Below, one piece after another: positions 35,278 through 51,747 of a stretch of DNA of 64,000 nucleotides. The translations under genes were made by a program, and so were the position numbers. Source of the DNA: Bdellovibrionota bacterium (GTDB lineage Bacteria > Bdellovibrionota > UBA1018 > CAIPTA01 > JAALKR01); contig CBDBMJ010000001.1 of NCBI GenBank assembly GCA_965207455.1, positions 1,280,001 to 1,344,000 of the forward strand. Direction: 5' to 3'. The notes under the pieces are model-generated. The model saw only the letters and a list, made by a program, of their open reading frames with translations, did not search any database and was not told where the DNA came from. Position 1 is the stretch's first letter. Each line of letters starts with the position of its first letter.

Positions 35278-36393
35278 GTGATCTATTTTGACAATAATTC
35301 CACAACTAAGTTTTCGCCAAGTGTTGTTCGCTACTTGCAGGAGGATTGCAGTGCGGACTGGGGAAATGCATCGTCTGAGCATTTATTTGGTCAAAATTTA
35401 AAAAAAATCATTGAAGAAGATCGAAGCTATATTTCCAACTTTCTTGACGTATCAAAAAATACTCTTTTATTTACAAGCGGTGCTACAGAATCCATTAATA
35501 GCATTATCCATCCTATTTTTTTCAATGCGAATAAAATAGGCACAATCATTAGTTCCAAGATAGAGCATGAGGCAACACTTGCTGCCATAGACCGATTAGG
35601 GAAAGCTGGCATTACTGTTCTATGGGTTGAAAATGACAAAAATGGAATGATTATTGAAAGAGATTTAGAGCGACTGGTTCGGGAAAATCCCCATGCCCTT
35701 GTTTCCCTATTATATGCAAATAATGAAACAGGCGTGGTGCAAAATGCTAGGAAGATTGTGGAAATTTGTAAGGAATATGGATGCCTCATTCACTTAGACT
35801 CTGCCCAAATGCTGGGCAAGGGTGAACTCAATCTTTCTGATCTAAACCTAGATTTCGCAAGTTTTTCTGCCCATAAAATAGGGGGCTTAAAGGGTATGGG
35901 GCTATTGTATGTAAAAAATCCAGATAATTTTGTCCCCTTTATTCTAGGTGGTGGACAGGAGCAAGGTCTAAGGGGGGGAACATATAATCTAAATGGAATT
36001 AGAAGCTTTCGGCTGGCTCTAGAGGATGCCCAAAAATGGCGTGTAAAAAATATCAAGGAATTACGAGATAGTTTTGAGAGGCAAGTACTAGAGATTAGTG
36101 ATGGAATTATTATTAACTGTCAGGACTCGGATCGTATTTGTAATACAAGCAATGTCTTTTTTCCAAATATACCAAGTCAGGCAGTGGTTTTAGAGCTATC
36201 GAGAAATGATATTTGTGCCTCAACGGGGTCAGCTTGCAATTCAGGAACTGCTGATCCAAGCCATGTGATACAGGGGCTTGACTTGAGTAAGGAATATGCT
36301 GCATCGTGCCTTCGCTTCTCCCTTGCAGATTTTAATACCCATGATGAGATTAATCAGACTGTGAGAATTTTGAAAAAAATTATTTCCAAATAG
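35278..36393 (+). CDS. Cysteine desulfurase (SspA/DndA/IscS-like)
   Basis: IYFDNNSTT, FTSGATES, ANNETG, SAHK (PLP Lys), STGSACNSG (catalytic Cys). Confidence 0.93.
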   Translation: MIYFDNNSTTKFSPSVVRYLQEDCSADWGNASSEHLFGQNLKKIIEEDRSYISNFLDVSKNTLLFTSGATESINSIIHPIFFNANKIGTIISSKIEHEATLAAIDRLGKAGITVLWVENDKNGMIIERDLERLVRENPHALVSLLYANNETGVVQNARKIVEICKEYGCLIHLDSAQMLGKGELNLSDLNLDFASFSAHKIGGLKGMGLLYVKNPDNFVPFILGGGQEQGLRGGTYNLNGIRSFRLALEDAQKWRVKNIKELRDSFERQVLEISDGIIINCQDSDRICNTSNVFFPNIPSQAVVLELSRNDICASTGSACNSGTADPSHVIQGLDLSKEYAASCLRFSLADFNTHDEINQTVRILKKIISK

Positions 36394-36455
36394 CCCGGCA
36401 AGAGACAAAATAATGCTATACATTGAACCGTAATATAATATAAACTGTAGATTGG

Positions 36456-36491
36456 TTAAACTTTAACTATTTACTATTAACTAAAGTTTAA
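36456..36491. promoter_or_regulatory. Inverted repeat (candidate operator) just upstream of the DUF4007 gene
   Basis: TTAAACTTTA-N16-TAAAGTTTAA, perfect 10-bp arms. Confidence 0.4.
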
Positions 36492-36502
36492 TTGAAACAA
36501 GG

Positions 36503-37372
36503 GTGTGTGTGGTGAAATTTGGTGGTCATGAAACGTTTCATTTGCGAGACAGTTGGACGTTCAAGGGATTAAAAATGCTAGATGAGCAGGGCGACCTGTT
36601 TCATAACTCTGAAAAATCCATTGAGTTGTTGGGTGTGGGCACTAATATGGTTAAATCCATACGACACTGGTTGATCGCCACAGAGCTTGCTGAAATCAAA
36701 AACGGAGAATTAAACTTAAGTTCCATGGGTACTTTGCTTATGGCTCATGATCAATATTTCGACAGACTTGGCTCAGCATGGATTTTACATTATCTTCTAG
36801 CCTCTAATAAAGAAAGTGCCACCACCTGGTTTTGGTTTTTTAATAAATTTGGCATCAGTGAATTCACATCAGAATCTGCGGTTCATTATTTAGAGAACTA
36901 TTGCTCCTCTTTAAATAAAAGAGTAAATTCCAACACTTTAGTTAGAGACATCAATACATTGTTAAGAATGTATATAGAGCCTGAGTTTACAGGAAATCAA
37001 ACGCCTGAAGATAATAATATCTGCCCCTTATCCAAGCTTTCACTTATTCAGAAACAGAGGAATGGCACCTATAGAGTACATTCTCCTGACTTAGATGAAT
37101 TACCTGTTGAGATATTTGGATATTGTCTCATTCAATTTTGGATAAAAAAATTAAATAAAATCCCTGAATTTTCATTTGATGAGTTGATTAGCAAAGACAC
37201 CTCTCCTGTGAAGATTTTTTGTTTGAACAACGACAAAACAGTGGAGCTATTGAGCATTCTAGTTGAAAAATATCCCAAGCAATTCAGCTACCATAGAGCA
37301 GGGGGATTTTTTACCATCTCCATATATTCATCAAAAATTCAAAAATTATTAAATGCGTATTATGGAGAATAG
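36503..37372 (+). CDS. DUF4007 family protein (SspB-like)
   Basis: FGGHETFHLR.SW..KG, LGVGTNMVKSIRHW, W.LHY.LA...ATTWFWFFN, CPLSKL.LI. Confidence 0.9.
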   Translation: MCVVKFGGHETFHLRDSWTFKGLKMLDEQGDLFHNSEKSIELLGVGTNMVKSIRHWLIATELAEIKNGELNLSSMGTLLMAHDQYFDRLGSAWILHYLLASNKESATTWFWFFNKFGISEFTSESAVHYLENYCSSLNKRVNSNTLVRDINTLLRMYIEPEFTGNQTPEDNNICPLSKLSLIQKQRNGTYRVHSPDLDELPVEIFGYCLIQFWIKKLNKIPEFSFDELISKDTSPVKIFCLNNDKTVELLSILVEKYPKQFSYHRAGGFFTISIYSSKIQKLLNAYYGE

Positions 37373-37373
37373 T

Positions 37374-40300
37374 ATGACGAAGAAAAGAGTAAAACAAAAA
37401 TCCTTGTTTGACGATATCTTGATTAAGGTTGGAAAGAATTTCTCCAGATCCACTAGCTTAAAAATGGATTTTCAAGATAAAAGCTCCTTAAAGCATTTAA
37501 TTGTATCTGAAAAATTCCAAAAAAACTTCAACAGCATTTGTCCTTCATTTATAGATAACAATTCCAATCAAAGAGTTCATGTTATTTCAGGCACTCCTGG
37601 GGTTGGGAAATCTACTTTTGCCGTATTTCTAGCAAGATGTTTATCCAAAGGGAATAAAGGGAAACTGACCACAATTGTTGAACAGCAGGAAAAAATGCTC
37701 TCTGCTAAATTTACGAAAAACTATAAGCAAATAACTAAGGAAAACTACCTGCCCATATTTCTTAATGGAGATGAGGGAGAAATCGAAGATGCTTTTTACG
37801 AAGCACTAAAAGTTGCTTTTACAGAGCATGATCTTTCTCAGGATTTTGAAGGTTTAGCCCAAAAAAATTCAAATAATGCCTTTGGCGTTATTACTAATTG
37901 GAAAAAAAATTATCCATTAAAATTTGAAGAATTTAAGAAATTTGTTGATAGCAATTATGATGAAGGATATGAGAAATTCCAAAAATCATTGAAGAGAAAT
38001 CGAAGAAATGCTCAAAAATTCTTTTTTAAAGCATACAAGCAAATCACAGGAGGAGCAAGTATTGCCTCGTATCGACATGGACAGGTCATAGATTTATATA
38101 AAAATGCAGCTATCCTATTAAATAAGAAAAAGTTTTCAGGGATTTTTATCGCTTATGATGAATTTGGAAAGTACTTAGAGCGAGGGGTGAGACACCCCAA
38201 TGATTTTGACTTGCAGTTTTTGCAGGATATGGCAGAGTTATGCAATAAGGGACAAGAGTCACATATTCACTTGCTTCTAATAACACATTTGCCTATTTCC
38301 CAATATGCCACACAACTTCCAGCATCTATTCAGCAAGAATGGACGAAAATTGAGGGTAGATTCCAGCAGTCTTCGTTCAACAGTAGCTATGAATCAAGCT
38401 ATACAATTCTTGGTTCAGTATTTGAATCCAATATAAAAGCCGACAACCCCAGTGCATGGAAGAAAATTTCCGCACTTTCAAAAAAATGGGTAGATGTAAA
38501 TTCATCTACTCGTAATTTCCCTGACGTATTTAATACTAAGTATGTTGAGGAAATAATAAGCGAGAGTTTCCCTCTTCACCCTTCTGCATTTTGTTTACTG
38601 CCATTATTAAGTGAAAAAGTTGCGCAAAATGAAAGGACGATGTTTTCATTCCTAACAAGAGATGAGGATTCTTCTCTGCCTAGATTTCTAAAGAACAGTT
38701 TTCTTTCAACTGACCAACTAAACTATATTGGCCCTTTTGATTTATACAGTTATTTTAAGCAATTAATTGAAAATGACATGGCAATAGGTGGCGCCTATAA
38801 AATCGGACTCATAGTTAATGAAGTGTTGAACTCTCTAGATAGTTCTCAAAAATGCGAGAAAGATGTAATTTCACTACTGGGAATCGCAACAATTATCAAC
38901 AACAGATCTATTTTCAGAATTACATCAGAGTCCATACAAACCACTTTGTCTGGATTGTATAAAAGTGATGAAGTGGATAAATCCATTAAAACCCTAGAAA
39001 AATCCAAATCCATTATTTATGACCACACAAAATCTGAATATGTTCTTTTTGAAGGTTCTTCCATTGATATTGGAGAAGAGATTAACAAAGCAAGGCAAAC
39101 AAGACTAACAACTGCTGGCTACATTAATATTTTAAAGAAAAATTTCAATCTAAATTTCATAGTGCCCAAAAAATATAATTTTAAAAATGGAATTACTCGA
39201 TATTTCAGAGAAGAGGTCATTTCTATAGAAGAGCTGATGGCAAAAAAAATAGCCACAGACTATTCAAAAGAAGACGGGAAAGTCTATTACGTCATTCCAT
39301 TTACAAATAGCGACATGACGGCAATAAAAAATCATTTAGAAACATTGAATTTAAAATCCAGTGTTTTTGTACTTACAAACAAACCGCTGGAAATTGAGCG
39401 AGAATTATTAGAGCTACACGCAATAGAGGCTGTTTATTCTAAGAAAGAAATTCTATCCTCTGGACCAAAAGTAAAGAAAGAGCTCGATCATCATAGAGAT
39501 ACAGCTAAAGAAATAATAAAAAAATCTTTAAAGAAAGCCAGATCTAATGTGAATATGGATGTAACCGTCAATTATAAAGGCAAGGTTTTATCCAGTAGAG
39601 TTAATCAAATTCTAGATATTTCCAATTTTGTTTCAGATATATGCGAAGAAGAATACCATTCTTATCCTGTTTTTTACAATGAAATGATCAATAAAGCCAA
39701 GGCAAGTACTCCCATAATTCAAGGTAGAATTAGACTGATATCTGCTTTTGACAAGTGCCATTTAAACCGGTATGGAATTGAAGGAGGAGGCCCTGACTTT
39801 TCACTGTACAAGTCACTTTTAAAATCCAACTCCTTTTCTTTTGATACAAACAATGACGGTACTAAGACTATCAATGGCCTTAAGAAAAATAGTACTTTAA
39901 TTCCGCTCTTTGAAGATTTTCTTGCTTTTTTGAAAGAGTCGGAGCAGACCACTATATCCATGGAGACATTAATAGAGAGATGGAGAAAACCACCTTTTGG
40001 CATAAGAGTTCCTTTAATTCCACTTTATATGAATTTATTTTCTCGCATGACTTCCTCTCCAATAAGTTATTTCCATGACGATGTATTTGTAGGAAAGCTA
40101 GATATTGAATTATTTGAAAACTTGATTAAACAGCCCAAAAAATACTCTCTACGAATGCTCCATTTAGATAAAAAAAGAATGGACTTTTTGAAAAGAATTG
40201 GAAATGCTTTTGCCAAAAATATTCCTTATAAATTCAACACCGATAACCTTGATTTTCTGAAAACAGCAAAAATCATTTCAACCTATTATAGCTTAATTCC

Positions 40301-41129
40301 AAGTTTCACAAGAAGATGCCCAGCACTCACGCGACAGCAAAAAAAGCTTATTGCGCAACTTGAGGTTTTTAAGCAACCAGAGGAATTTATTTTATTTGAT
40401 TTGCCAAATGTCTATACAGGAAAGGCATCAGGTGAGCTTACCAGTTCTGAAATAAACAATTTTATTTCTTCCCTAGAATCTGATTTAAATGAAGTATTTA
40501 AAATATACGTTGACCTAGTAGGGCAGCTAGCAGGACTTCAAAAAGAACATTTACTGAAGCTGCAAGAAATAACAGGAAAGCAAGCTTTTCCAACAATAAA
40601 AAAGGGCGCACCATTGGCAAAATATTGGAAAAATGCTTTACTGATGCTATCTGACAAAACTCTATCCTTTCCTTATAGCGACAAAACCCTAATGTTTGTA
40701 AATCGAATCAACCAGTTGAATGATAAAGCAAACAATCAATCCATCGTGGAAACTTTAGCTGATTCTTTAACTGGGGCTAACCCAAAAAGTTGGAGTGAAA
40801 AGGGACTCTCTCTTTTTGAGCATAATATAAGGTCTGCTATTTCTGAAATAAAACAAATTCATTATTTAAATTTAAACAGTGGTGAGGGTGTTACAACTAT
40901 TTCTAGTTTTGATGAATCTGGAAAACCATCTTTCAAAGAGATATTAAAATCCAACTCCCAAACAAAGAAGCTTAGCTCCATCATTAATTCAATTCGGACA
41001 AATATAGAAAATTTAGAAGATATAGAGAAGAACACTGTTCTTTTAGAACTGCTAAATGAGATTAACAATAAAAAAAATCAGCCCACAAAGGTGACTAACA
41101 AGTCAACCATTGGTGCGGCATGGGGGTAA
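37374..41129 (+). CDS. Large P-loop ATPase (SspC/BrxC-like)
   Basis: Walker A GTPGVGKST, Walker B IAYDEFGKYLE, FLQDMAE, EWTKIEGRF, FPLHP, QNERTMFSFL, PPFGIR; about 1250 aa. Confidence 0.88.
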   Translation: MTKKRVKQKSLFDDILIKVGKNFSRSTSLKMDFQDKSSLKHLIVSEKFQKNFNSICPSFIDNNSNQRVHVISGTPGVGKSTFAVFLARCLSKGNKGKLTTIVEQQEKMLSAKFTKNYKQITKENYLPIFLNGDEGEIEDAFYEALKVAFTEHDLSQDFEGLAQKNSNNAFGVITNWKKNYPLKFEEFKKFVDSNYDEGYEKFQKSLKRNRRNAQKFFFKAYKQITGGASIASYRHGQVIDLYKNAAILLNKKKFSGIFIAYDEFGKYLERGVRHPNDFDLQFLQDMAELCNKGQESHIHLLLITHLPISQYATQLPASIQQEWTKIEGRFQQSSFNSSYESSYTILGSVFESNIKADNPSAWKKISALSKKWVDVNSSTRNFPDVFNTKYVEEIISESFPLHPSAFCLLPLLSEKVAQNERTMFSFLTRDEDSSLPRFLKNSFLSTDQLNYIGPFDLYSYFKQLIENDMAIGGAYKIGLIVNEVLNSLDSSQKCEKDVISLLGIATIINNRSIFRITSESIQTTLSGLYKSDEVDKSIKTLEKSKSIIYDHTKSEYVLFEGSSIDIGEEINKARQTRLTTAGYINILKKNFNLNFIVPKKYNFKNGITRYFREEVISIEELMAKKIATDYSKEDGKVYYVIPFTNSDMTAIKNHLETLNLKSSVFVLTNKPLEIERELLELHAIEAVYSKKEILSSGPKVKKELDHHRDTAKEIIKKSLKKARSNVNMDVTVNYKGKVLSSRVNQILDISNFVSDICEEEYHSYPVFYNEMINKAKASTPIIQGRIRLISAFDKCHLNRYGIEGGGPDFSLYKSLLKSNSFSFDTNNDGTKTINGLKKNSTLIPLFEDFLAFLKESEQTTISMETLIERWRKPPFGIRVPLIPLYMNLFSRMTSSPISYFHDDVFVGKLDIELFENLIKQPKKYSLRMLHLDKKRMDFLKRIGNAFAKNIPYKFNTDNLDFLKTAKIISTYYSLIPSFTRRCPALTRQQKKLIAQLEVFKQPEEFILFDLPNVYTGKASGELTSSEINNFISSLESDLNEVFKIYVDLVGQLAGLQKEHLLKLQEITGKQAFPTIKKGAPLAKYWKNALLMLSDKTLSFPYSDKTLMFVNRINQLNDKANNQSIVETLADSLTGANPKSWSEKGLSLFEHNIRSAISEIKQIHYLNLNSGEGVTTISSFDESGKPSFKEILKSNSQTKKLSSIINSIRTNIENLEDIEKNTVLLELLNEINNKKNQPTKVTNKSTIGAAWG

Positions 41130-41133
41130 AAAT

Positions 41134-41952
41134 ATGAATTATTTAGATATAGATTCTACTGCGCGACACATCTGTTCACTATCTGGTGGTAAAGACTCAA
41201 CAGCATTAGCTGTCTACTTAAAAGATAAAATACCCAATATTGAATATGTATTTTGTGATACCGGCTCGGAGCTAACTGAAACATACGATTTCCTAGACCG
41301 TGTGGAAGCATATTTAGGTGCTAAAATTGTTCGTTTAAATAGTGGAAAGGGTTTTGAGGAGTATTTAAATAAACACATGAACTATCTACCCTCTCCCATG
41401 TCTCGATGGTGTACCGCTGAAATGAAAATTAGACCTTATGAGCAATATATTGGTAAAGATAAATGCTATTCTTATGTGGGAATTCGAGCTGATGAAAATC
41501 GAGAGGGCTATATATCAAAGAATGATAATATTATCCCTAAATATCCCTTTAAAGAGGATGGAATTGATAGAGCAGGAGTCTATAAAATTTTAGAGGACTC
41601 TGGTCTTGGTTTGCCAAAATATTATGAATGGCGTTCCCGTTCCGGTTGTTATTTTTGTTTTTTCCAGCGGTCTATTGAGTGGGTTGGTCTACTGGAGCGT
41701 CACCCCAAACTATTTGAGAAAGCAGAAGCATTTGAAAAAATGGGATATCGAGGTGACAAAGTAGATTTCACTTGGGTCAAGGGACGAACACTGGACTGGA
41801 TAAGAAAAAATAAAGATGAGATTAAAAAAAGGCATAACGACAGGATGAAGAAAACACTTGAAAAAAAAGTACACACCAATATACATGATGTTTTTGAGAG
41901 TGCTGCTAGTGAGGAATCATCGGCAAGAGCCTGTAATATTTGTGACTTATAA
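41134..41952 (+). CDS. PAPS-reductase/PP-loop family protein (SspD-like)
   Basis: SLSGGKDS, FCDTG.EL.ETY, RWCT..MKI.P, GIRADE, RSRSGCYFCFFQR, C-terminal CNICDL. Confidence 0.92.
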   Translation: MNYLDIDSTARHICSLSGGKDSTALAVYLKDKIPNIEYVFCDTGSELTETYDFLDRVEAYLGAKIVRLNSGKGFEEYLNKHMNYLPSPMSRWCTAEMKIRPYEQYIGKDKCYSYVGIRADENREGYISKNDNIIPKYPFKEDGIDRAGVYKILEDSGLGLPKYYEWRSRSGCYFCFFQRSIEWVGLLERHPKLFEKAEAFEKMGYRGDKVDFTWVKGRTLDWIRKNKDEIKKRHNDRMKKTLEKKVHTNIHDVFESAASEESSARACNICDL

Positions 41953-41960: not shown

Positions 41961-43430
41961 ATGGAAAATAGAAGTTTAAATTATGAGATTCGATCCAAGA
42001 CTGCGATGGAAAGATATGAGTTTTCCAGACCTGTAAAATTTGCACTCAGAGATCTAGTTATTAAAAAAAATTGGAGTTTCTTTGATTATGGTTGTGGAAA
42101 AGGCTCCGACATCTCATTTCTTAAAGGATTAAATATTGAATCAAACGGATATGACCCTTATTTTTTCCCAAAAAATGAGAAAATAAAATCTGATATTGTA
42201 AATCTAGGGTATGTAATAAATGTAATAGAGGATCCAGAGGAAAGAAAATCAACCATCAAAGAAGCATACTCACTTGCAGATAAATGCCTGATTGTTTCAG
42301 CACAAACAAAAGCAGCTGCCATTCATGATGCACAAGAATTTGGTGATGGCTGTCTTACAAAAAGAGAAACCTTTCAGAAATATTTTTCACAAGAAGAACT
42401 CAAGGCATTACTATCCGACGTTTTAAATACTACACCATACCCTGCTGGACCAGGAATTTTTTATATTTTTAAAGATGAGAGTGCTCGGAGTGAGTATTTA
42501 ACAGTTCGTTACGATTCCACACGTTTCCTCAGAACAACAGAAACGCCATTTTTGAAACAAAAACGCTTCTACCCTCCCATGAATGAGATAAAAGAAGAAA
42601 AACTTAGTAAAAGCTCTTCTGTAAGTGATTTAGTAGACTGGGTGAGCACAAGAGGTCGTTTTCCCACAGAGTTTGAATTTACAGGATATGAGGAAATTTC
42701 CAAGCTAGGGGTTCAACGGAATTTTTTAGAAAACTGGGTATTAAACAATCTAAATCAGGACGCTTTTGAGAATGCGAAAAAAGTTCGTAGGCAAGATATA
42801 TTACTTATGCTTGCCCTCACCCGACTTGATCAGAACGGCAGACCTAAGCTAAAAGACCTTCCCCTACAAAGCAGCTTAGATATAAAGGCATTTTTTAAAA
42901 CCTATAACAATGCAGTTCTTAATGCGGACAAATTGCTTTTTAGTGTTGCTGATCCCAAAAGAGTTCAAGATGCCATACAGCAATCTGAGGTTGGCAAAAA
43001 ATTACCCGATAGTATTTACCTGCATACTTCAGCCCTTCCATACGCTCCAGATATTCTCCAAATATTTGTAGGCTGTGCCCGTGCTGTTGTGGGAGATGTG
43101 GAAGGTGATGTAATTATAAAAATTCCCAAAAAAGCCACCTCTGTTTCATTCTTACTATATCGTGATTTTGATAGCTCTCCCCATCCTGAATTAATGCTAT
43201 CTGTGAAGGTAAAACTAAGAGAAGCAAGGATTTATTCCAGAAACTACACAAAATCGGACAATCCTCCTATTTTGCATAGAAAAGAAACATTTGTTCACAC
43301 CAGCTACCCTTTATTCAATAAATTTAAAAAAGAAACCAAAAAAGAAGAATCCTTAGGGCTTTTGGGAAGAACAGATATTGGTTTCAAGAAAAATTGGGAA
43401 AAGCTCACAGAAAATATCACCTTGAGTTAA
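41961..43430 (+). CDS. DNA phosphorothioation-associated putative methyltransferase
   Basis: SRPV, FDYGCGKGSD (SAM motif I), YDPYF, VNLGYVINVIEDPEER, TFQKYFSQEEL, PHPEL, NPPILHRKETFV. Confidence 0.88.
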   Translation: MENRSLNYEIRSKTAMERYEFSRPVKFALRDLVIKKNWSFFDYGCGKGSDISFLKGLNIESNGYDPYFFPKNEKIKSDIVNLGYVINVIEDPEERKSTIKEAYSLADKCLIVSAQTKAAAIHDAQEFGDGCLTKRETFQKYFSQEELKALLSDVLNTTPYPAGPGIFYIFKDESARSEYLTVRYDSTRFLRTTETPFLKQKRFYPPMNEIKEEKLSKSSSVSDLVDWVSTRGRFPTEFEFTGYEEISKLGVQRNFLENWVLNNLNQDAFENAKKVRRQDILLMLALTRLDQNGRPKLKDLPLQSSLDIKAFFKTYNNAVLNADKLLFSVADPKRVQDAIQQSEVGKKLPDSIYLHTSALPYAPDILQIFVGCARAVVGDVEGDVIIKIPKKATSVSFLLYRDFDSSPHPELMLSVKVKLREARIYSRNYTKSDNPPILHRKETFVHTSYPLFNKFKKETKKEESLGLLGRTDIGFKKNWEKLTENITLS

Positions 43431-43432
43431 AG

Positions 43433-44408
43433 ATGGAAAATATAATTCATTATAATAATTTAGGCGATATTGTGGCAGAAGAGTTCAAAAAATCTCAAAA
43501 AGAAATACTTATTTTTTCTCCTTATATTACCACAAACGCCTTAAAGAAAATTCTTGATCCAGTATCATCAGGTGTTCATGTTTCTATTATTACAACATGG
43601 AAAGTGCAAGATATAGCTTATGGTGCCAGCGAGCTTGCCTCCTATGAGTTTGCAAAAAAAAGAGGGTTTCAGTTTTTTTTGAATCAACAAATACATTTAA
43701 AAACATACCTATCTGACCATAAAAAAGTAATTACAGGCTCTGCCAACTTAACCAATAATGGTATGGGATTCTCCTCCAACCCAAATAAAGAAACTCTTGT
43801 AGAAACAGACTGTTGTCCAGGCGATTACTTGCATTACTTGCTATCAATATTACGTGATTCCAAATTAGTTGATGATGAGATTTTTGCTTATTTTAAAGAA
43901 AAATCTCAAGAAATAAAAATAGATAAAATCAGTGATTCTGTTCAAGAAAATATAGATAAAGACGCATTTAAAGAAAAAAAAGATAGTTTCTTAGTTTCTG
44001 AATTGCCCATGTCTTCCAGCGTTGAAGTTATTTATGAAATTATAAAAGAGCAAAAAATCTGTTCAATGATCAGGACGAAATACTGCGCATTCCATGATTT
44101 AGCGAAATACAACATAAGTTATAATGAATTAACAAGCATGGATGATTTTAAGAAAAAAAATGCATCTAAATTTCTTTAAGCATCCATTTATAGTAAAATT
44201 TGTAGCCTCTTTAAACAAATCCAAGAGCTTCGGCCGAGTAAAGGAATGGATACAAAGAAATTGTACCAATGTGCCCGTTCCTAACAGAAGAGAATTGACA
44301 GCAAATGTGAGGACTCTTTTTGATTGGTTGATAGAATTAGACCCCGATTCTTTTGTAGTGGAGCGACCAAGGCATGCAGAAGTTTTATTTAGGAAAAATC
44401 CAAAATGA
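43433..44408 (+). CDS. Phospholipase-D-family (HKD) nuclease; apparent +1 frameshift at A8 44153-44160
   Basis: FSPYIT and HLKTYLSDHKKVITGSANLT (HxK-x4-D-x6-GSxN); reading continues in ORF 44142..44408. Confidence 0.8.
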
Positions 44409-45203
44409 TTGATTATAATCAACCGCTATTGAAATTATTAAAAAAATGCTTTTGATATAAAAACTCAGGGAAACCCCAAAGAACAAGCACTGTTTGATGA
44501 TATTATTCAAAGATGGACATCAGGGAGAGAAGAGCCAAATTTTTCTAAAATAATATATGAAATGGATTTAATCAAAAATGACGAAGATAGAGTAAGGGAA
44601 CTTGAAAAAAATGCAAAGGAAATAAATTCAAAGGTTAGCGGGGAAGCATTAGGAGTTCTTTTTAATGACATAAAAAAAATATTATTATCCGATAATGCTA
44701 TCAATAAAAATGAAAAAATTATATTAGATACTCTAGAATCCTGCTGGTCAAAAAAATGATTTTAATTGATCGCCAAGTAGAGCGGATTAGAACAAAAAAG
44801 CATTTTATTCCTCACACCACATTTGAAGCGATTGGGATACTTATTTGCAATAGTAATCCGAGTGGATGGAAATATAACAAAAGATGAAATATCCTCTTTG
44901 AGAAAAAATTTACGAACGTGGAATAATGAAAATGCCAGATTGATAATTCATGCAATTAACTTGATCGATCCATTTTCTTCAAGTGCAAATATTATAAATC
45001 TTTTTAAAAAAACTACTGAATTTTCCAGTATAGAGGAAAAATCAGTGATGAATTGCCTTGACTTTTTAAATGATTCATCTCCAAGCACAAAAAAGTTAAT
45101 ATACCAACAAATAGTATCTTTAATAAAGGCTGACGGGCATGTGCATAAAAATGAGAGATGGATATGGTATCACATGAAACAAAAATGGAATATAAATAAG
45201 TAG
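44405..45203 (+). CDS. Tandem TerB-like domain protein interrupted by indels (A7 at 44440-44446; disrupted patch ~44750-44790)
   Basis: ATG overlaps the PLD stop. TerB-type motifs LSDNAINKNE..ILDTL, IRVDGNITKDEI and IKADGHVHKNE; fragments 44562..44759 and 44823..45203 share a frame. Confidence 0.6.
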
Positions 45204-45214: not shown

Positions 45215-46904
45215 TTGTTTGATGAATTAAGACATTTATTAAGTAGAGTTGCAGTACATGACCTCAAAAATTATCTTGGAAAAGAAATTGTTGGGTTGGC
45301 AGATTATTTAAATGAAAGTGATTCTGCCAGTAAACTTGTTAATGCTGCAATATCTACAGATGGGAAAAAATTACTAGAAAGAAAGACAATCCGCTGGCTA
45401 TTGATATTTACGCATCTGAAAAAAGAAGAAATTGAGTCTCTGGGCGCAATCTTTGAATGTTCATTCTAAAGATACTGCACAATGCATAGACAATATATCC
45501 AGCCTACCTTTTTTAAGCAATAAAAATAATAGAATAATTTTAGAGGCTCTAAATTTAGATATAAGTTATCTTCCTGATAAAGCAATTTCTTCCGATGAAC
45601 TGGGGCAAGAAAAAATATTGGCTAAAAATAAATTTTTTGAACTGTTAGATTATCAATTTGATATAAAAATGCGAGTATTAAAAATCTTTAAAACAACTCA
45701 GCTTGCTCGATGCATGATTCATATGCCAACGGGTTCAGGGAAAACTAAAACCGCAATGAATATATTACATAATTATTGGTGGCAAGAGCATGACTGCAAT
45801 GGAATTATCGTTTGGATGGCCCACTCAGAAGAATTGCTAAAACAAGCAATTGATGCATTTAAAGATATGTGGGAGGTAATGGGGCGAAAGGACGTGGATT
45901 TAATCAGATTATGGGGTAATTTTAATCTCCCTCAAGAACTTCCTGTTCGAGGAATAATTTTTACTGGAATACAAAAAATGATTTCAATATCGAAAAAGAA
46001 CCAAATAGATGAATTAAATAAGCACCTCCGCATGGTAGTTATAGATGAGGCACACAAGGCACCAGCTAAAGAGACAAAAAAAGTAATATATGAAATGATG
46101 AAAATGCCCGAGAATAGCCAAAATAGAGTTTTACTTGGTCTAACCGCAACACCGGGGAGATCAACTGGATTTGATAAACAAGATGAAATTTTAATATCCA
46201 TGTTCGAGAATTCAAAAGTTGATTTAAATATTAAACATATGGATAAGTATTTAACAGATGGATATACTAGTAAAAATGTAATTGATCATCTCCAGCACAG
46301 AAAGATACTTTCTAAATTTGAAAGAGAACCAATCCAAATTGAAAGAAAATTACTTAACCTAAGTCCTGCTGATATTTTAAACTTGGAGAAATCAATAAAA
46401 GATAAATCGTCTGAAATCAAAGCTAGCACTTTAGATAAGATAGCTAAAAGTAAAGCTAGGAATCAATTAATTATTGAAAAATTAATTGATTTAAATTCCC
46501 AAGGATTAAAAACATTAGTATTTGCTTGTAACTTAAATCATGTTAGACTTCTTACAGCAGCACTTCAAATGAGAGGAGTTAATGCGGAACATGTTCTGGG
46601 AGATACTCCTTCCAATCATAGAGCAGACGTTATATCAAAGTTTAAAGATGACCATAGTGGTTTAAATATATTGATTAATTATGGTGTTTTGACAACTGGT
46701 TTTGATTCTCCAAATATTGATTGTATTTTTATAGCAAGACCTGTTACCTCAGTGATTTTATACAGCCAAATGATTGGAAGAGGCATCCGTGGAACTATGA
46801 TGGGTGGGAAATCTTCATGTATATTAATAGATGTTGTTGACAACATCAAACAGCATGGTGATGAGTCATGGGCTTTTAGTTTTTTTAATAAATATTGGAG
46901 TTAA
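45215..46904 (+). CDS. SF2 DEAD/DEAH (ResIII-type) helicase; apparent +1 frameshift near 45452
   Basis: AGGAG RBS; LDYQ, MPTGSGKT, DEAH, LTATPGR, TTGFDSP, QMIGRGIRG. Confidence 0.88.
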
Positions 46905-46915
46905 AGGAGAAAAAT

Positions 46916-48661
46916 ATGGAGAATAATGAAAAAGATATTATAAACTTAGAATACTATGCAGATGCCCTAAGAAACACTGGATATAAAAATACGGAAAATG
47001 CATTGGCTGAAATTGTGGACAATAGTTTAGAGGCTGGTGCAAAAGATATTTTAATTTTATGTAAAACAGGTATTAGGCATACCAGAAAATCTATAGTGGA
47101 AATTGCCATATTGGATAATGGATGTGGAATGCCTGATGATATTTTATCCAAATGCTTAGGTATCGGAGAAAGCACACGCAGAGAACGAAAAGGGATGGGA
47201 CGATTTGGTGTTGGACTACCTCAAGCTTCTTTTCATGTGGCACCTCGTGTAGAAGTCTACTCATGGCAAAATGGTGCCACTCCTAGATATGTATACCTTG
47301 ATGTAAATGAAATGAAATCAGGAAAACAAAAAAAACTTTCCCAGATAACGAAAGAAAACTTACCACAATCCTATCAAAAGTACTTAAAGGGTTTTACTTT
47401 TGAAAATGAAGGTAAAGAAATGAGTTTTTCAGAATCTGGCACATTAGTAATTTGGAAAGCTTGTGACAGATTAAACCCTAAAACAGCAACAGCACTTTAT
47501 CCCAGATTCAACCGTCTTTTAGGAAGAAAATTTCGACATTTCATCAATGATGACTGTACTATTGGTTTTTTCGCTGAAGGTGATGATAGAACTAAAAAAA
47601 TACTTAAACCCAACGATCCTCTTTGTCTCATGACTAATAATCAGGTTTTGGGCAATGAGAATGATCCTACAGAAATATATGATGAGGGAGAGCCAATATT
47701 TGAGCTTTGGGATAATGCAGGCATGATCTGTCCACATGAAGAAGAAATTGAATACAGGCAAGGCAATAAGATAAAAAAGAGTAAAATTGAAATCACATTT
47801 TCACTTGCTAAGCCTATTTATCAGAGAGCTGGTGGAGAGAATAAAATTGGACAACATTTGAAAAAAAATGTGGGAATTTCGATAGTCCGAGCTAATCGAG
47901 AAATTGATTTTGGGAAATTCGATTTATTCAGTGATATAAATGAGCCACAGCATAGGTGGTGGGGATGTGAAGTAAAATTTAAAACTGAATTAGATGAAAC
48001 ATTCGGCGTCTCCAACAACAAACAGCAAGTAGAACTTCGTGAATTAAATGGAGTAGAATATGAAGAAGACGACATAAAACCTATTTGGTTTAAGCTTGAA
48101 AAAATAGTTGCCAGAGAAATTAAACATATTTATAAAGAAATTAAAAAAAGAAAAGAAGGAAGTAGAAAAAAAACCTCCCAACCTTCGAAAGAAGAAGCCA
48201 TAGTAGGAGTTGTTGAAGCAAGAGATGAAATACCAACAAAATCAGAGGAAGTTAGAGAAAATACTCATCCTGAAGAATTGAAAAACTTAGTTCGAGAAGT
48301 AACAATAGAATCCACAGGAAACCCCCATCCAACCGATGATGAAATAAACGCCCAAATGACTTCTCCGGTCCATATTACTGAAAAAGACATGGGCGATTCT
48401 TCCCATTTTATTGATATATCCACTAAAATGGGAAATTGTTGGCTAACAATAAATACAGGTTCCATATTTTATCGAGAAATGTACAGCAAATTAGAGGAAA
48501 AAGATGAAAGTGTATTCAGTGCCTTTAAACTTATTTTAATGGCATATGCTAGGGCAGAAGATGAAGCTATCTCGGAAAAGCTTCGTGAATCATTTAGAGA
48601 AGTAAGACGATTATGGGGTGTAAAAATTGAAAAATATTTGAAAACTGATTATCAATCATAA
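46916..48661 (+). CDS. MORC-like GHKL ATPase (HATPase_c_3)
   Basis: GYKNTENALAEIVDNS, DNGCGM, GRFGVGL, SGTLVIW; AAGGAG RBS. Confidence 0.9.
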   Translation: MENNEKDIINLEYYADALRNTGYKNTENALAEIVDNSLEAGAKDILILCKTGIRHTRKSIVEIAILDNGCGMPDDILSKCLGIGESTRRERKGMGRFGVGLPQASFHVAPRVEVYSWQNGATPRYVYLDVNEMKSGKQKKLSQITKENLPQSYQKYLKGFTFENEGKEMSFSESGTLVIWKACDRLNPKTATALYPRFNRLLGRKFRHFINDDCTIGFFAEGDDRTKKILKPNDPLCLMTNNQVLGNENDPTEIYDEGEPIFELWDNAGMICPHEEEIEYRQGNKIKKSKIEITFSLAKPIYQRAGGENKIGQHLKKNVGISIVRANREIDFGKFDLFSDINEPQHRWWGCEVKFKTELDETFGVSNNKQQVELRELNGVEYEEDDIKPIWFKLEKIVAREIKHIYKEIKKRKEGSRKKTSQPSKEEAIVGVVEARDEIPTKSEEVRENTHPEELKNLVREVTIESTGNPHPTDDEINAQMTSPVHITEKDMGDSSHFIDISTKMGNCWLTINTGSIFYREMYSKLEEKDESVFSAFKLILMAYARAEDEAISEKLRESFREVRRLWGVKIEKYLKTDYQS

Positions 48662-49029
48662 TTTATGTAGATATGCTTTTCTCAGCACTTTAGACAATTT
48701 TTAAAGCCAGAACGTGACACGAAATCACGCAGACCGTCAAGCGGACAACTTCCCTGAAGCAGCAAAGCTTCCTTTTGTATGATTACCAAGCAATTCTGTC
48801 GCACTACAATTGGGAATTCAACAGACGCATTGCGCATTTTCAAACTCTTAAAAACAAAAGGAATTATGCGGCGAGTTGCTAATTTTTTCTTTTGCAGCGA
48901 TGGAGATTTTCGTTTTTGTGCCCACAAACTCTATAATTTCCTTGTCTTATCCAGCTCTACTATTGTAAGACGTTTATAATGCTTAGGCGGTCTAAGGGAT
49001 ATTAAAGCTAAGCCAACTTGCTGGATACA

Positions 49030-49197
49030 ATGATGACAACAGAAGAAGAATTAAAAGCCAACCTTAATAAAATTCTTGAGATTGAATCAAATTACTTTGA
49101 TATGGAAGAGCTCTCTAATCATCAAAAAGCCACTATTGTAAAAAAGATAGTCAACGTTATCAAGAACAACGGAAACAACGATAATGATACTAAATAA
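49030..49197 (+). CDS. 55-aa small protein overlapping the ATPase start (PbeB-like by position)
   Basis: Below the ORF-track cut-off. Hand translation MMTTEEELKANLNKILEIESNYFDMEELSNHQKATIVKKIVNVIKNNGNNDNDTK*; overlaps the next ATG by 14 nt. Confidence 0.55.
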   Translation: MMTTEEELKANLNKILEIESNYFDMEELSNHQKATIVKKIVNVIKNNGNNDNDTK

Positions 49198-51265
49198 TAT
49201 TACAGTAAAGAATTTCAGGCAGTTCATGGGAAGCCAGTCGATTGATTTCTCGAATACTCCAGAAAAAAACGTCACCATCATTCATGGAGAAAATGGTTCT
49301 GGGAAAACCACACTCCTCAATGCCATTACTTGGTGCTTATACAGTCACACTAGCCCTGATTTTGAGGAGTCAGATTATCTGCTGTCGAAAAAAGCAGTTC
49401 TTAAATCAAACATGAATGACATCATTGAGTGCTCTGTAGTTTTAAAGTTTACTGATTCCAATCTCGATTATGAGGCCATAAGAAAATATAAGTATAGGTC
49501 ACTGGGACCGAATAAGAAGCCAAGTAAACATGGAGTGGGTTCCTTTGAGTTATTTATAAAAAAAGATGGTGAAAGAAGGAAGGCAGACAATCCAAATGTT
49601 TTTATTAATAGAATAATCCCAAAAGAAATGCACAGCTATTTCTTTTTTAACGGCGAAAGAATAGACAGACTCGCACGACGCTCAAATAACTTTGAAATAA
49701 GAGAGGCGATAAAGGTTCTTCTAGGAGTAACAATACTAGAAAGAGCGCTTGTTCACCTGAAGGCTGCACATAACATAATAAACACACAGCTAAGCAACAA
49801 CAGTAGGCTAGACCACAATATCAGGAATATTCTACTTGAACTGACCAAGAATAATAAAGATTTAGAGCACAATGAGAAATGCAGGGAACATTGCAAAAAG
49901 AATGCTGGATCACTTAAAAAAGACAACGAAGCCATCAGAGATAAACTTAGAGATTTTAAAGAAACAAGAGAGTTAGAGGAGAAACGAGATGAATTGTTTG
50001 CTGAAGATACGGAGCTTTCTTCCTCGATAAAATCCATTGAGAAACGAATAATAAAATTCATCACTCGAAAATCTTGTTTTTCATTTATGGGTCCAGTATT
50101 TGAGCAAGTTAACAATATATTGAAAGATCTTAAAACCTCAAATATCCTGCCAAACGAAGTGAAAGAGGACTTTATCAGGCGTTTGTTAGCAGAAAATTTA
50201 TGTATATGCAAAAGAAAACTTGCAAATGATTCCAAGGCATCTGCTGCAGTCAAAAAATTGCTTGACTACAGTATAAGCAAAGACGTTGACCAAAATATTG
50301 CCATTATGAAAAATAACTTAACTGCGATTAATGAAAAAATGCAGGAAAACCCAAGGGAGTTGAAAAACCTCATTCAAGAAAGAGAACGGTTAAGCACAAA
50401 ATCAGAAAAAGTGGCAAGGCAACTGGATGAATTAAAGAAATCCCTAAAGGGAATTAAGGGCAAGGAGGAAGTGAGAAAACTAAGCATTAAATTCGAGGAA
50501 AATGAAGCTACGACTGAGCAAGAGTTAAAAAACTATGGTCAATATGAATCAAAAATTTTATTTTTGAAGCAAAAAATTACTGAACTCGAAAAATCCAAGA
50601 AGCTAATGTCTCAAAAAAACCAGGAAGCCGAACGGTTGCTGAAATCTAATAATTTCAGCGCAGAACTCATCAGGTATACCCAAAAAATTTATGATGACAG
50701 AATCGCAGAAATCAGAGAAAAATTATCCTTTAAAGTCAACAGACTATTCCGACGTATCTGCAAGAAAGATTATCACATAAGAATGAACGAAGATTTTGTT
50801 ATAGATGTATTTGATTCGAAAACAGAACATGCAAAACCAGTTGGAAAAAGTACCGGTGAAAATCAAATGACAAGTTTATCTTTCATCGGCAGCATACTTG
50901 AATTTGCCAAGGAGATTAAAACCGACAAAAACAAATACGGGAGCATAATAAATAAATATGGAGGGATTTATCCTCTAGTTATGGACTCACCTTTTGGTAG
51001 CTTAGACCAGACATCCAGTAAAAACGTGGCAGAAAGCCTTCCCTCTCTTTCTGAGCAAATCGTACTTATGGTTTCCTCTACCCAATGGAGAAATGAAGTG
51101 AAAAATGGAATGATCTCTAAAGTAGGAAAACAATATGTATTATGCAACCACACCCCTAAACCTGGAAAAGCTGCAAAAGTTTTTATAGAATACAACGGAA
51201 GAAAGCACCCCTTTGCCAAATCAACAGATGGTCCTGAATTCACAGAAGTTGAGGAATTAGTATGA
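49184..51265 (+). CDS. SMC/Rad50-like ABC ATPase with CxC motif (PbeC/DndD-like)
   Basis: NFRQF, GENGSGKTT, YFFFNGE, long coiled coil with CIC, signature STGE, Walker B/D-loop VMDSPFGSLD. Confidence 0.88.
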   Translation: MILNNITVKNFRQFMGSQSIDFSNTPEKNVTIIHGENGSGKTTLLNAITWCLYSHTSPDFEESDYLLSKKAVLKSNMNDIIECSVVLKFTDSNLDYEAIRKYKYRSLGPNKKPSKHGVGSFELFIKKDGERRKADNPNVFINRIIPKEMHSYFFFNGERIDRLARRSNNFEIREAIKVLLGVTILERALVHLKAAHNIINTQLSNNSRLDHNIRNILLELTKNNKDLEHNEKCREHCKKNAGSLKKDNEAIRDKLRDFKETRELEEKRDELFAEDTELSSSIKSIEKRIIKFITRKSCFSFMGPVFEQVNNILKDLKTSNILPNEVKEDFIRRLLAENLCICKRKLANDSKASAAVKKLLDYSISKDVDQNIAIMKNNLTAINEKMQENPRELKNLIQERERLSTKSEKVARQLDELKKSLKGIKGKEEVRKLSIKFEENEATTEQELKNYGQYESKILFLKQKITELEKSKKLMSQKNQEAERLLKSNNFSAELIRYTQKIYDDRIAEIREKLSFKVNRLFRRICKKDYHIRMNEDFVIDVFDSKTEHAKPVGKSTGENQMTSLSFIGSILEFAKEIKTDKNKYGSIINKYGGIYPLVMDSPFGSLDQTSSKNVAESLPSLSEQIVLMVSSTQWRNEVKNGMISKVGKQYVLCNHTPKPGKAAKVFIEYNGRKHPFAKSTDGPEFTEVEELV

Positions 51266-51747
51266 GTAAATATGGTTTTAAAAGCTTTGTATTTTGTGAC
51301 TCGCACTCTGAGTTAGTAGATAATTTATGTAAAGCAGGTTCAAGGTATTTTGATAATATTTATGAGCTATTTACATTAGCAGCATGTATTGGATATAGTA
51401 AGGGTCGCAAATCCAAAGTAGAAAAAGCTGGAAAAAAAATAGAATTCAATCAGCTCAGATCATTTGAAAACTTTGACGGAATTTTTCTTTCTATCTGTTT
51501 AGCCCACTCAAAAGAATCTTCCATCCTTAAAGATGATGACGAAACAATTACAAGTAGAATGACAATCTTTAGTGAATACGCAAATGGAGGGATGGAAATA
51601 CTGAAAAAAGAGGTTAATTCCAACCAAGGTGATTTCCAAGAAAATCTCATTCAGTATATACAAGATAATGGGGTTCACTTTAAAGAATTCAAAGAAAAAA
51701 CTACGGAAGGAACTAGCAAGTACAAGCATCTCCTAGAAGGACTGTAA
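51262..51747 (+). CDS. Small protein resembling dnd-associated protein 4 / PbeD
   Basis: F..IYELF.LAACIG and R.TIFSEYANGGMEIL motifs; ATGA overlap with the ATPase. Confidence 0.7.
   Translation: MSKYGFKSFVFCDSHSELVDNLCKAGSRYFDNIYELFTLAACIGYSKGRKSKVEKAGKKIEFNQLRSFENFDGIFLSICLAHSKESSILKDDDETITSRMTIFSEYANGGMEILKKEVNSNQGDFQENLIQYIQDNGVHFKEFKEKTTEGTSKYKHLLEGL

Follow-up and report, generated by a model that had tools for sequence, protein, structure and literature searches.

The window analysed here is a stretch of 64,000 nucleotides, which carries an island of twelve genes on the + strand at positions 35278-51747. The initial annotation had listed these genes, and their presence and coordinates were borne out by an ORF and annotation check. 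The features are:

35278..36393, + strand, SspA, cysteine desulfurase (sulfur donor); PADLOC SspA 7e-103, DndA 1.5e-99; Aminotran_5 1.2e-62
36503..37372, + strand, SspB, DUF4007 DNA-recognition/nicking subunit; PADLOC SspB 5.9e-68; DUF4007 4.2e-74
37353..41129, + strand, SspC, P-loop ATPase of 1258 aa; PADLOC SspC 1e-152, BrxC 6e-48; Walker A GTPGVGKS at residue 80
41110..41952, + strand, SspD, PAPS-reductase-like sulfurtransferase; PADLOC SspD 8.1e-106; PP-loop SGGKDS at residue 25, CxxC at 180 and 275
41961..43430, + strand, putative phosphorothioate (PT)-associated methyltransferase (TIGR04096); 453 bits, cut-off 150
43394..44408, + strand, PLD/HKD nuclease; PLDc_2 2.6e-14; probable consensus frameshift in an A8 run at 44152-44159
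44405..45203, + strand, tandem TerB-like protein (about 265 aa); three probable 1-base consensus errors at 44440, 44749 and 44834
45215..46904, + strand, SF2 helicase (ResIII 2.2e-24, Helicase_C 1.2e-13); probable 1-base error at 45442
46895..48661, + strand, MORC-like GHKL ATPase; HATPase_c_3 3.7e-20; overlaps the helicase gene by 10 nt
48662..49017, no strand, the single long intergenic gap of the island; 368 nt from the GHKL gene to the ATG of the small ORF
49018..49197, + strand, PbeB-like small protein (55-59 aa); overlaps the start of PbeC by 14 nt
49184..51265, + strand, PbeC, CxC-type ABC ATPase; PADLOC PbeC 1.4e-156, DndD 9.3e-52
51262..51747, + strand, PbeD, DndE-like partner of PbeC; TIGR04062 70.3 bits, just below the cut-off of 74.25; PADLOC PbeD 3.4e-5

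The GC content is 0.34-0.35 within the island and 0.43-0.46 in the flanks. The sspA gene is adjacent to sspBCD, which form one operon with overlaps of 20 nt, and from SspB to GHKL all genes overlap or are separated by at most 11 nt. The PLD, tandem TerB and helicase genes are present, but each is split over frames in the consensus of the window (at 43394-44408, about 44405-45203 and about 45215-46904). Logan contigs of run X1, which may be the sample that the window was assembled from, differ from the window by five 1-base indels at 44153, 44440, 44749, 44834 and 45442. At 44153, two X1 contigs agree on one base fewer. With these indels applied, the three genes are open over 359, 269 and 567 aa. 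As the contig indels restore reading frames which are colinear with the proteins of a 51-55% identical relative (genome G146), the apparent frameshifts are probably consensus errors. The same comparison reveals an error of this type at 33536 in the housekeeping gene glmS.

The first four genes had been proposed to be a phosphorothioate writer of the SspABCD type, and PADLOC confirms this with E-values of 6e-68 to 1e-152. The modification of known Ssp systems is the single-strand CpsC phosphorothioate. By analogy with the Vibrio and E. coli systems, SspA would take sulfur from cysteine and SspD would pass it on, while SspB and the SspC ATPase would choose and prepare the site. Together the four proteins would write a PT mark on the host DNA. 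The methyltransferase that follows has the motifs DYGCGKG at residue 42 and NPPILHRKE at residue 434. In its structural model (pLDDT 84), residues 8-174 form a class I SAM methyltransferase fold (Z 13.8). Half of its metagenomic relatives (9/18) lie beside Ssp genes and 3/18 beside CxC/DndE matches, and the protein would be an accessory of PT writers.

None of the canonical effectors was found. Among the 16 island proteins, PADLOC calls SspABCD, no SspE, SspFGH, PglZ or BrxL, and only a partial Pbe set, in agreement with what the initial annotation had noted and forecast. Searches of the genome to which the island belongs (94.7% complete) gave no match for SspE (PDLC02783) and DUF262 (PF03235), whose controls were positive in 5/14 and 7/14 genomes. 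PglZ (PF08665) has no match there either (controls positive in 2/14 genomes). The SspF model PDLC02793, the single SspFGH model run genome-wide, also has zero matches, and its control was positive in no genome.

Instead of these effectors we find a PLD nuclease, a tandem TerB protein and an SF2 helicase adjoining a GHKL ATPase, all within the same operon. The catalytic motifs of nuclease, helicase and GHKL are intact. The nuclease has HxK(4)D at residue 101 and GSAN at residue 115, and its C-terminal part, encoded in another frame, matches the PLDs of L019, L022 and G146. In the helicase GSGKT, DEAH, TATP and QMIGRGIR are present, and an N-terminal piece at 45200-45469 aligns with the N-termini of its homologues. 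The N-box and the G-boxes of the GHKL protein are invariant; in a profile search its best match is MORC2 (1.7e-8), followed by MORC4, MORC3, PMS1 and MutL. The assignment of the tandem TerB protein holds less firmly in the window, where it reaches only 20.7-21.3 bits at a cut-off of 24.4. Its relative in G146 scores 24.9 bits, and this 268-aa protein is colinear with 44451-45191 (32% identity, E 6e-35).

The search for conserved synteny proposed earlier shows that the helicase-GHKL-PLD set recurs next to Ssp genes. We found helicase and GHKL beside Ssp genes in 15 further inspected loci from several phyla: six plasmids (L021, L022, L027-L030), four metagenome contigs (L006, L010, L017, L019), four IMG/VR records (L047, L049, L052, L054) and genome G146. 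The hosts named for such loci are Alphaproteobacteria, Cyanobacteriota, Bacteroidota and Spirochaetota, and in many loci the cassette is co-oriented with the Ssp genes, often straight after sspD. GHKL matches at E <= 1e-50 occur in 13 plasmid records, and in 12 of these SspD is matched no more than 12.5 kb away; in the thirteenth SspB, SspC and SspA are adjacent. In G146 the order PLD-TerB-helicase-GHKL is conserved, with 55% and 51% identity (the latter for the helicase), and in G168:C141 the helicase comes after SspC-SspD and is the last gene before the contig ends. In L001 the cassette adjoins a different PAPS-reductase module. The cassette shares its locus with SspE in G146 and Hymenobacter L029, and with DndB-like proteins in L022 and L028. 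GHKL relatives also occur where Ssp genes and helicase are lacking, namely in four of nine long IMG/VR matches (L048, L050, L051, L053) and in many weaker plasmid matches. In a phylum sample of 401 genomes including G000, GHKL is found in 2, SspD in 5 and PbeC in 1. Given this sparse distribution the island is probably of horizontal origin.

The last three genes are of the Pbe type, and to this extent the initial annotation was right to compare the downstream genes with Dnd partners. PbeC has its Walker A motif at residue 35 and CIC mid-protein, at 340-342 of 693 residues. The 161-aa protein behind it is 28-34% identical to PbeD of L023-L025 (tblastn 1e-10 to 1e-12). It is probably the cognate of DndE in CxC systems, named PbeD in excerpts of PMC10853773, and the earlier statement that DndE is absent does not seem to hold. 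The small ORF has no family match in PADLOC, Pfam or NCBIfam, and no profile exists for PbeB. It occupies the position of the small ORFs in L023-L026, just upstream of PbeC, and shares with these proteins a loose pattern, read by eye, of two hydrophobic residues-x-I-E/Q-x-x-Y.

The island has no gene for PbeA, the fusion of an HKD nuclease with an SF2 helicase; no remnant of it lies upstream of pbeB in the gap at 48662..49017, and genome-wide TIGR04095 stays below its cut-off. We considered whether PLD, helicase and GHKL are PbeA or Dnd partners, and this part of the earlier proposal we reject. These proteins match helicase-GHKL-PLD cassettes flanking Ssp genes with E-values of 1e-37 to 1e-157. 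With true PbeA genes tblastn gives no match at E <= 1e-3, and the reverse search only E 0.005-0.45. On the PbeA profile the island helicase scores 80.5 bits (2.6e-23, positions 234-630), true PbeA 627-811 bits.

On two plasmids (L025, L026) SspABCD is directly followed by a full PbeABCD. The pairing of Ssp with Pbe is therefore natural too, and because it recurs, the combination seen here is not mere chance clustering. Beside these two loci there is no match to TerB, helicase, GHKL or PLD, and beside the cassette there is no CxC or DndE match in the 15 loci or L001. In run X1 the contigs branch at 48926/48927, inside the gap between GHKL and the small ORF (Logan contig records 3, 5), contigs break at 48927 and 51754, and one contig joins 35098 directly to 48927, skipping the Ssp block and the cassette; the shorter side of this joint spans 30 letters, where the tool asks for 31. 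The 368-nt gap and this weak contig evidence suggest that the Pbe genes form a unit of their own. We infer its independence from the gap, from the joint and the breaks, and from the finding that the neighbours do not mix elsewhere.

Several known systems resemble parts of the island. The four-gene PT writer is common to SspABCD-SspE of Vibrio cyclitrophicus FF75 and E. coli 3234/A; in contrast, the island and its genome lack SspE/DUF262 and have PLD, TerB, helicase and GHKL plus PbeBCD as effectors. G146, the closest relative of the locus, still has a DUF262/DUF1524 SspE-like gene. SspABCD-SspFGH of Vibrio anguillarum FF-93 likewise combines an Ssp writer with a restriction module of several genes, ATPase included, which damages DNA that lacks PT, but SspFGH comprises a Walker A protein and an FtsK-like C-terminus and not helicase, GHKL or PLD (PMC8092258). 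Among 2,678 sspBCD loci, 196 have sspFGH, 199 sspE and 36 both (PMC8092258). One writer can carry stacked effector modules. In DndCDEA-PbeABCD, for which the name CxC ABC ATPase-DndE system is also in use, the PbeB-like protein, the CxC ABC ATPase and the DndE-like protein are found in the same canonical order with overlaps, whereas the island lacks PbeA and its writer is Ssp rather than DndCDEA. In excerpts of PMC6459918 and PMC10853773, Pbe stands alone or accompanies Dnd or methylases; Ssp is not among its partners there. Finally, SspC and SspD are homologous to BrxC (6e-48) and BrxP (4.8e-11, both PADLOC) of BREX type 4 (BrxP-BrxC-PglZ-BrxL), and DUF4007 is common to both; here, however, PglZ is absent from the genome, and SspB and SspD are separate genes.

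The initial annotation proposed a single chimeric system of twelve genes. Such a system may exist here, but two separable effector modules, stacked on one writer, are the likelier reading. In an integrated chimera PbeBCD would work with the separate PLD and helicase standing in for PbeA, GHKL and TerB would be add-ons, and all would read the Ssp mark. The fusion of both domains in PbeA (excerpts of PMC10853773 and PMC6459918), the common orientation of all twelve genes, the match of the helicase to the PbeA profile, the lack of an above-cut-off PbeA elsewhere in the genome and the SspABCD-PbeABCD plasmids speak for it. We nevertheless regard it as unlikely, since helicase and PLD are members of the cassette family linked to Ssp and not of PbeA, CxC/DndE matches accompany the cassette in 0 of 15 loci and not in L001, G146 has SspE in place of the Pbe genes, the gap precedes pbeB, and the contigs hint at a form with pbeBCD but lacking the Ssp block. 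Conversely, the cassette could be an independent system that travels with Ssp, as it shares loci with SspE, already an Ssp effector, or with DndB-like proteins. It would then be a self-contained MORC-type restriction or abortive-infection system which does not read PT and only shares defence islands and mobile elements with Ssp. Excerpts of Iyer, Abhiman and Aravind 2008 (PMC2292703) predict operons of MORC/paraMORC, SFII helicase and nuclease to be restriction-modification systems with no PT link; a GHKL ATPase beside a type III-like SF2 helicase and an HKD nuclease is also what we see here. In that text 'Dnd' is absent and the single 'sulfur' is part of a genus name. GHKL relatives lacking Ssp fit this explanation. 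Those operons are, however, linked to DNA methylases, whereas the island has a PT writer and TerB. Modification genes are found only among the neighbours of the cassette, not within it, a PAPS-reductase module stands beside it again in L001, and its close and co-oriented linkage to Ssp on plasmids and elsewhere makes mere co-location, in our view, quite improbable.

We give very little credence to the explanation that the island is decaying, in which case PLD, TerB and helicase would carry genuine frameshifts, the effector half would be dead and a solitary PT writer would be left. It is true that five frame-breaking indels fall within 1.3 kb of the window consensus, that the correcting contig (43984-48956) has a depth of only 4.1, contig depths not being reliable, and that for the majority of published sspBCD loci no partner is known (PMC8092258). 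But at each of the five sites independent contigs differ from the window by a single base, two of them in agreement at 44153, the corrected frames are colinear with G146 over nearly the full length, the essential glmS carries the same type of error, and the catalytic motifs are intact.

We therefore consider it rather probable that the locus is a PT-based restriction-modification system consisting of the SspABCD writer, the cassette as main effector and separately acquired PbeBCD. Beyond the writer, the predicted proteins are the TIGR04096 methyltransferase, PLD-TerB-helicase-GHKL and PbeBCD lacking PbeA, and not one Dnd/Pbe set. This reading is grounded in the family assignments, the intact catalytic motifs and the recurrent synteny, and from the sequences we infer all activities and the PT dependence of the effectors. 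The translationally coupled PLD nuclease, tandem TerB, SF2 helicase and MORC-like GHKL would be the main effector. The helicase would translocate on DNA and the GHKL protein would dimerise as an ATP-driven clamp, which would license the HKD nuclease on DNA that does not carry PT marks. The PT marks of the host would block or disarm the complex, as proposed for DndFGH, and TerB would be a subtype-specific accessory. PbeB-PbeC-PbeD would be a CxC-ABC/DndE DNA-scanning module, acquired separately and lacking its own PbeA nuclease-helicase, and would add a second, probably weaker, layer.

Writer, helicase-GHKL-PLD cassette and Pbe genes were observed together only in this island. We found neither the pairing of Ssp with the cassette nor that of Ssp with Pbe described in the literature, and experimental work on either seems to be lacking. 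Here the PT-marking genes occur without their textbook nuclease; instead they are accompanied by a cassette which is found beside such genes in many bacteria.

The island consists of twelve plus-strand genes between a HIT-family gene and a ClC channel gene, which form its borders:

34692-35108, minus strand, HIT-family gene, left border of the island
51783-53531, ClC channel gene, right border of the island

Its GC content is 0.34-0.35 as against 0.43-0.46 in the housekeeping flanks, where glmU, glmS, rnc, era, der and ribD are found. The window lacks tRNA genes, and no integrase was noticed next to the island. Unrelated to the island, the window carries at 16290-21932 a low-GC (0.32-0.37) cluster of DUF285/Big_13/PKD surface-protein genes. 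Judged from their sequences, the first four island genes are unambiguously an SspABCD module: PADLOC matches SspA, SspB, SspC and SspD at 7e-103, 5.9e-68, 1e-152 and 8.1e-106, and SspD has its PP-loop (SGGKDS), SspC its Walker A motif. After SspD follow a TIGR04096 protein, a PLD/HKD nuclease, a TerB-like region, an SF2 helicase and a GHKL ATPase of the HATPase_c_3 type. Past the GHKL gene there is a gap of 368 nt and then an ORF of 55-59 aa, a PbeC-type ABC ATPase and a 161-aa protein.

Among the 16 proteins scanned with PADLOC, none matches SspE, SspF, SspG, SspH, PglZ or DndB. The organism's own genome (2.38 Mb, 94.7% complete) likewise has no match to the models of SspE (PDLC02783), DUF262 (PF03235) and PglZ (PF08665). 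The SspF model PDLC02793 has no match in this genome either, which is a weak test since the control for this model matched in no genome. The PbeA model TIGR04095 stays below its cut-off throughout the genome. The initial annotation had named as support an SspABCD call unaccompanied by SspE or SspFGH and with only a part of Pbe, and this is what PADLOC reports (PbeC at 1.4e-156, PbeD at 3.4e-5 for the 161-aa protein, no true PbeA).

None of the PLD, TerB and helicase genes lies in a single frame in the window consensus. These breaks are probably consensus errors and not real, because alignments with homologues, intact genes in a related genome and indels in contigs of a public run all point this way. 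The C-termini of PLD homologues match 44148-44399 in another frame, and the N-termini of helicase homologues match 45200-45469. In genome G146, from the same phylum, the three genes are unbroken (313, 268 and 567 aa), in identical order and colinear with the window. The public run X1, in which 0.94 of the sampled words are present and which is possibly the window's own source sample, yields Logan contigs that differ from the window by 1-base indels at 44153, 44440, 44749, 44834 and 45442. When these five indels are applied, open frames of 359, 269 and 567 aa result which match the G146 proteins nearly end to end. The X1 contig spanning 43984-48956 has a depth of only 4.1. For the TerB region, a reading as stop-codon readthrough or as two separate small genes was set aside, as the contig indels restore one frame. 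Errors of one base also occur in the consensus outside the island, because the essential glmS is mended by an X1 contig indel at 33536. In the window this gene (32699-34688) is split into overlapping ORFs for the GATase (32699-33673) and SIS (33492-34688) parts; the X1 contig is without one base at 33536, and deletion there gives a single frame of 663 aa. In the 3′ portion of the PLD gene (43984-44341) many sites of the window disagree with each of two contigs (depth 4.1 and 7.6), and the window consensus has the look of a composite of two variants that co-exist.

The helicase, GHKL and PLD genes form a cassette which recurs beside Ssp genes. We queried 72,556 plasmids with the GHKL protein (tblastn) and obtained 47 records. 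With a GHKL match of E <= 1e-50 there are 13 records, including two near-identical Trichormus plasmids, and 12 of these 13 have an SspD match within 12.5 kb. The thirteenth, pTS1 of Treponema saccharophilum, has DUF4007, SspC and desulfurase genes directly upstream. On the six plasmids opened (Treponema, Trichormus, Pannonibacter, Cyanobacterium HL-69, Hymenobacter and Planktothrix) the gene order is sspB-C-D, variable inserts, helicase, GHKL, sometimes an insert, and PLD. The cassette also lies beside Ssp on four metagenome contigs reached via the methyltransferase (L006, L010, L017 and L019), on four IMG/VR contigs (L047, L049, L052 and L054) and in G146. In a further genome (G168, contig C141) SspC and SspD are followed by the helicase and then by the contig end. 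In the opposite direction, GHKL matches at E <= 1e-50 are present on 12 of the best 60 of 110 SspD plasmid records. Both Ssp and helicase are absent from four of the nine long IMG/VR hits of the GHKL protein (L048, L050, L051 and L053), and SspD is absent from many of the weaker hits on plasmids. The link between cassette and Ssp is thus recurrent yet not absolute. In a Dehalococcoidia MAG (L001, 4439-12611) the order helicase-GHKL-PLD follows PDC-M33A, PDC-M33B and a fusion of DUF6339 with an SspD-like PAPS reductase, which we regard as a candidate for a different writer beside the same cassette.

Several of these loci carry further genes. A 796-aa ORF lies directly 3′ of the PLD gene in L019 (11853-14243) and L017 (9396-11786); in L019 it encodes a NERD and protein-kinase protein (PD-T4-6/PglW-like, E 2.9e-36). 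Two cyanobacterial plasmids (L022, 7851-10157; L028, 4410-6770) have a DndB-domain protein of 768-786 aa between sspD and the helicase, and on the HL-69 plasmid several toxin-antitoxin pairs are interleaved. The IMG/VR contigs L051 (8238-11458) and L053 (8239-11419) have two tandem GHKL genes with no Ssp or helicase, which is a different use of the same ATPase family.

The closest cassette is that of G146, with 55% identity in the GHKL protein and 51% in the helicase, and it shares the unusual order PLD-TerB-helicase-GHKL. Past the cassette G146 carries a 722-aa SspE-like gene (DUF262/DUF1524), sspB-C-D, the methyltransferase gene, which lies on the opposite strand, and finally sspA. Among the loci inspected, we saw a tandem-TerB gene in none but the window and G146. 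For the GHKL protein, phmmer against the PDB sequences gave nothing, and a scan of the genome contigs gave one locus only; the Atlas gave 'ATP-binding protein' clusters only. In a sample of 401 genomes of the phylum, this genome included, GHKL occurs in 2, SspD in 5 and PbeC in 1, and PbeC is found in none of the 40 nearest relatives. Therefore all parts of the island are rare, horizontally acquired cargo.

The 489-aa protein after SspD scores 453 bits (cut-off 150) on TIGR04096, 'DNA phosphorothioation-associated putative methyltransferase'. Relatives of it adjoin phosphorothioate (PT) writers: of 18 metagenome loci, 9 lie beside Ssp genes and 3 beside CxC/DndE matches, and the remaining 6 are too short or without match. 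The methyltransferase is also present in G146, in the genome G253, in Trichormus and at three IMG/VR loci. In its AlphaFold model (pLDDT 84.2), residues 8-174 form a class I SAM-methyltransferase domain, and the fold matches are confined to them. The closest folds are those of methyltransferases acting on small molecules, tRNA and thiols (Z 13.8; rmsd 2.5-2.9 over 137-145 residues). None of the best 50 fold matches listed is named as a DNA methyltransferase, by which such a match is not excluded, and phmmer against the PDB sequences gave nothing. An alignment of 41961-43430 with 13 relatives reveals a conserved module, GK..D..Y.H ... NPPILHRKE ... GFKKNWE. Most relatives have it at the N-terminus and a second, degenerate copy at the other end; the window, G146 and L010 have it at the C-terminus alone. 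This placement resembles a domain permutation within the family.

We then turn to the Pbe part. PbeC has a Walker A motif at residue 35 and the sequence CIC at 340-342 of 693, in the middle of the coiled coil; the CxC motif is the hallmark of the CxC ABC ATPases, which Rakesh et al. (PMC10853773) equate with PbeC. In the same source, PbeA is identified as a fusion of an HKD nuclease with an SF2 helicase, PbeB as a small protein that evolves fast, and PbeD as the cognate of DndE. The 161-aa protein is just under the cut-off of TIGR04062 (70.3 vs 74.25 bits). The canonical plasmid loci L023 and L024 have the order PbeA-small ORF-PbeC-PbeD, and in the window the small ORF, PbeC and PbeD show the canonical overlapping arrangement. 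With its counterparts the small protein shares a loose pattern, two hydrophobic residues followed by x-I-E/Q-x-x-Y. On the PADLOC PbeA models true PbeA proteins score 627-811 bits versus 80.5 for the window helicase. The window helicase and PLD have no tblastn match to four PbeA genes at E <= 1e-3; the reverse search of the window with PbeA gave only E 0.005-0.45, and nothing in the gap 48662-49017. By these searches PbeA is missing from the window. In an archaeal test system full protection needs all four pbe genes, and deletion of pbeA keeps a low-level resistance (PMC6459918).

Ssp and Pbe are a natural pair. On a Sphingomonadaceae plasmid (L026, CP099618.1) sspA-B-C-D is directly followed by PbeA (627 bits), a 74-aa ORF, PbeC and a 148-aa ORF, overlapping, and on a Rhizobium indigoferae plasmid (L025) SspABCD faces small ORF-PbeC-PbeD-PbeA (811 bits). 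Neither plasmid has a match to the helicase, GHKL, PLD or TerB. Conversely, CxC/DndE has no match in the 15 cassette loci or in L001. Ssp recurs with the cassette and with Pbe; all three together were met only in the window.

The spacing of the genes speaks for two putative transcription units, Ssp-cassette and Pbe: from sspB to GHKL the genes overlap or are spaced by <=11 nt, and the GHKL gene and the small ORF are 368 nt apart. A scan for promoters and terminators was uninformative on operon breaks, with counts about those of shuffles (65 vs 62.8; 12 vs 10.9). Breaks in the X1 contigs fall at 35098, 44013, 48927-48956 and 51754-51797. In one contig 35098 is followed directly by 48927, so that 13,828 nt are absent, a stretch that runs from a point upstream of sspA to one 265 nt beyond the GHKL gene. 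Another, 4030 nt long, departs from the window within the PLD gene at 44341, shares with it after that only the helicase P-loop region (45720-45761), and returns to it at 51754; the stretches between these window-matching parts are 549 and 3041 letters of other sequence. By lengths alone, it fits a variant without TerB and pbeBCD and with a diverged helicase/GHKL stretch. The short sides of these joints are 30 and 42 letters, and the contigs are of metagenome origin. The depth in X1 is about 20-26 in the flanks and pbeBCD, 10.7 in ssp and 4.1 plus 7.6 in the TerB-GHKL stretch; such depths cannot rank genes, and the pattern would fit a polymorphic block. The contigs weakly suggest co-existing forms of the locus, one of them without the 13.8-kb ssp-to-GHKL block and with pbeBCD. 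This is a hint that the Ssp-cassette and Pbe blocks are separable cassettes at one hotspot.

We suggest that the island most likely works as follows. SspABCD would put the PT mark on the host DNA. The helicase (motifs I, II (DEAH), III and VI intact), the GHKL ATPase (N-box and G-boxes intact, profile closest to MORC2/3/4) and the HKD nuclease (HxK(4)D...GSAN intact) would form a translocating, ATP-gated restriction complex. Comparable restriction complexes have been predicted for MORC/paraMORC operons (PMC2292703). In those, however, methylation is the self mark, whereas here we propose PT. PbeBCD (49018-51747) would contribute a further layer, an ABC ATPase with DndE that scans DNA, and would act by itself or make use of the split nuclease and helicase. 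Judged by its genes, the island would be a PT-based restriction-modification system with uncharacterised effector modules. We tentatively propose, with somewhat less than even confidence, that Ssp systems have, besides SspE and SspFGH, a third widespread restriction module that reads PT, namely helicase-MORC-like GHKL-PLD, and that the window shows this module mixed and matched with a CxC/DndE module devoid of PbeA, at one hotspot of the chromosome and in a single population.

The PT-linked effectors described in the sources consulted are DndFGH, SspE, SspFGH, PbeABCD (with Dnd), DndI and TdpAB (PMC12707154, PMC13251355, PMC12914056, PMC11662687). In full-text literature searches no account of a helicase-GHKL-PLD or a Pbe module paired with Ssp turned up. 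In a survey of 2,678 sspBCD loci, sspE lies beside 199, sspFGH beside 196 and both beside 36 more; about 84% have neither nearby (PMC8092258). The reason for these partnerless sspBCD loci is an open question of the PT field, and a conserved helicase-GHKL-PLD partner would explain a sizeable share of them. If true, the PT readers would come to include a MORC-type ATPase, which is of relevance to the response of MORC-like clamps to epigenetic marks. Should the Pbe half really work together with the split PLD and helicase, one PT mark would serve two readers of different mechanism, and the island would represent a new hybrid architecture. The natural Ssp-Pbe pairings, on two plasmids and in the window, would extend PbeABCD beyond Dnd writers. 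It has been reported that 320 of 553 pbeAC loci are without dndCD within 10 kb (PMC6459918), and the Ssp-Pbe pairings may help to explain such loci.
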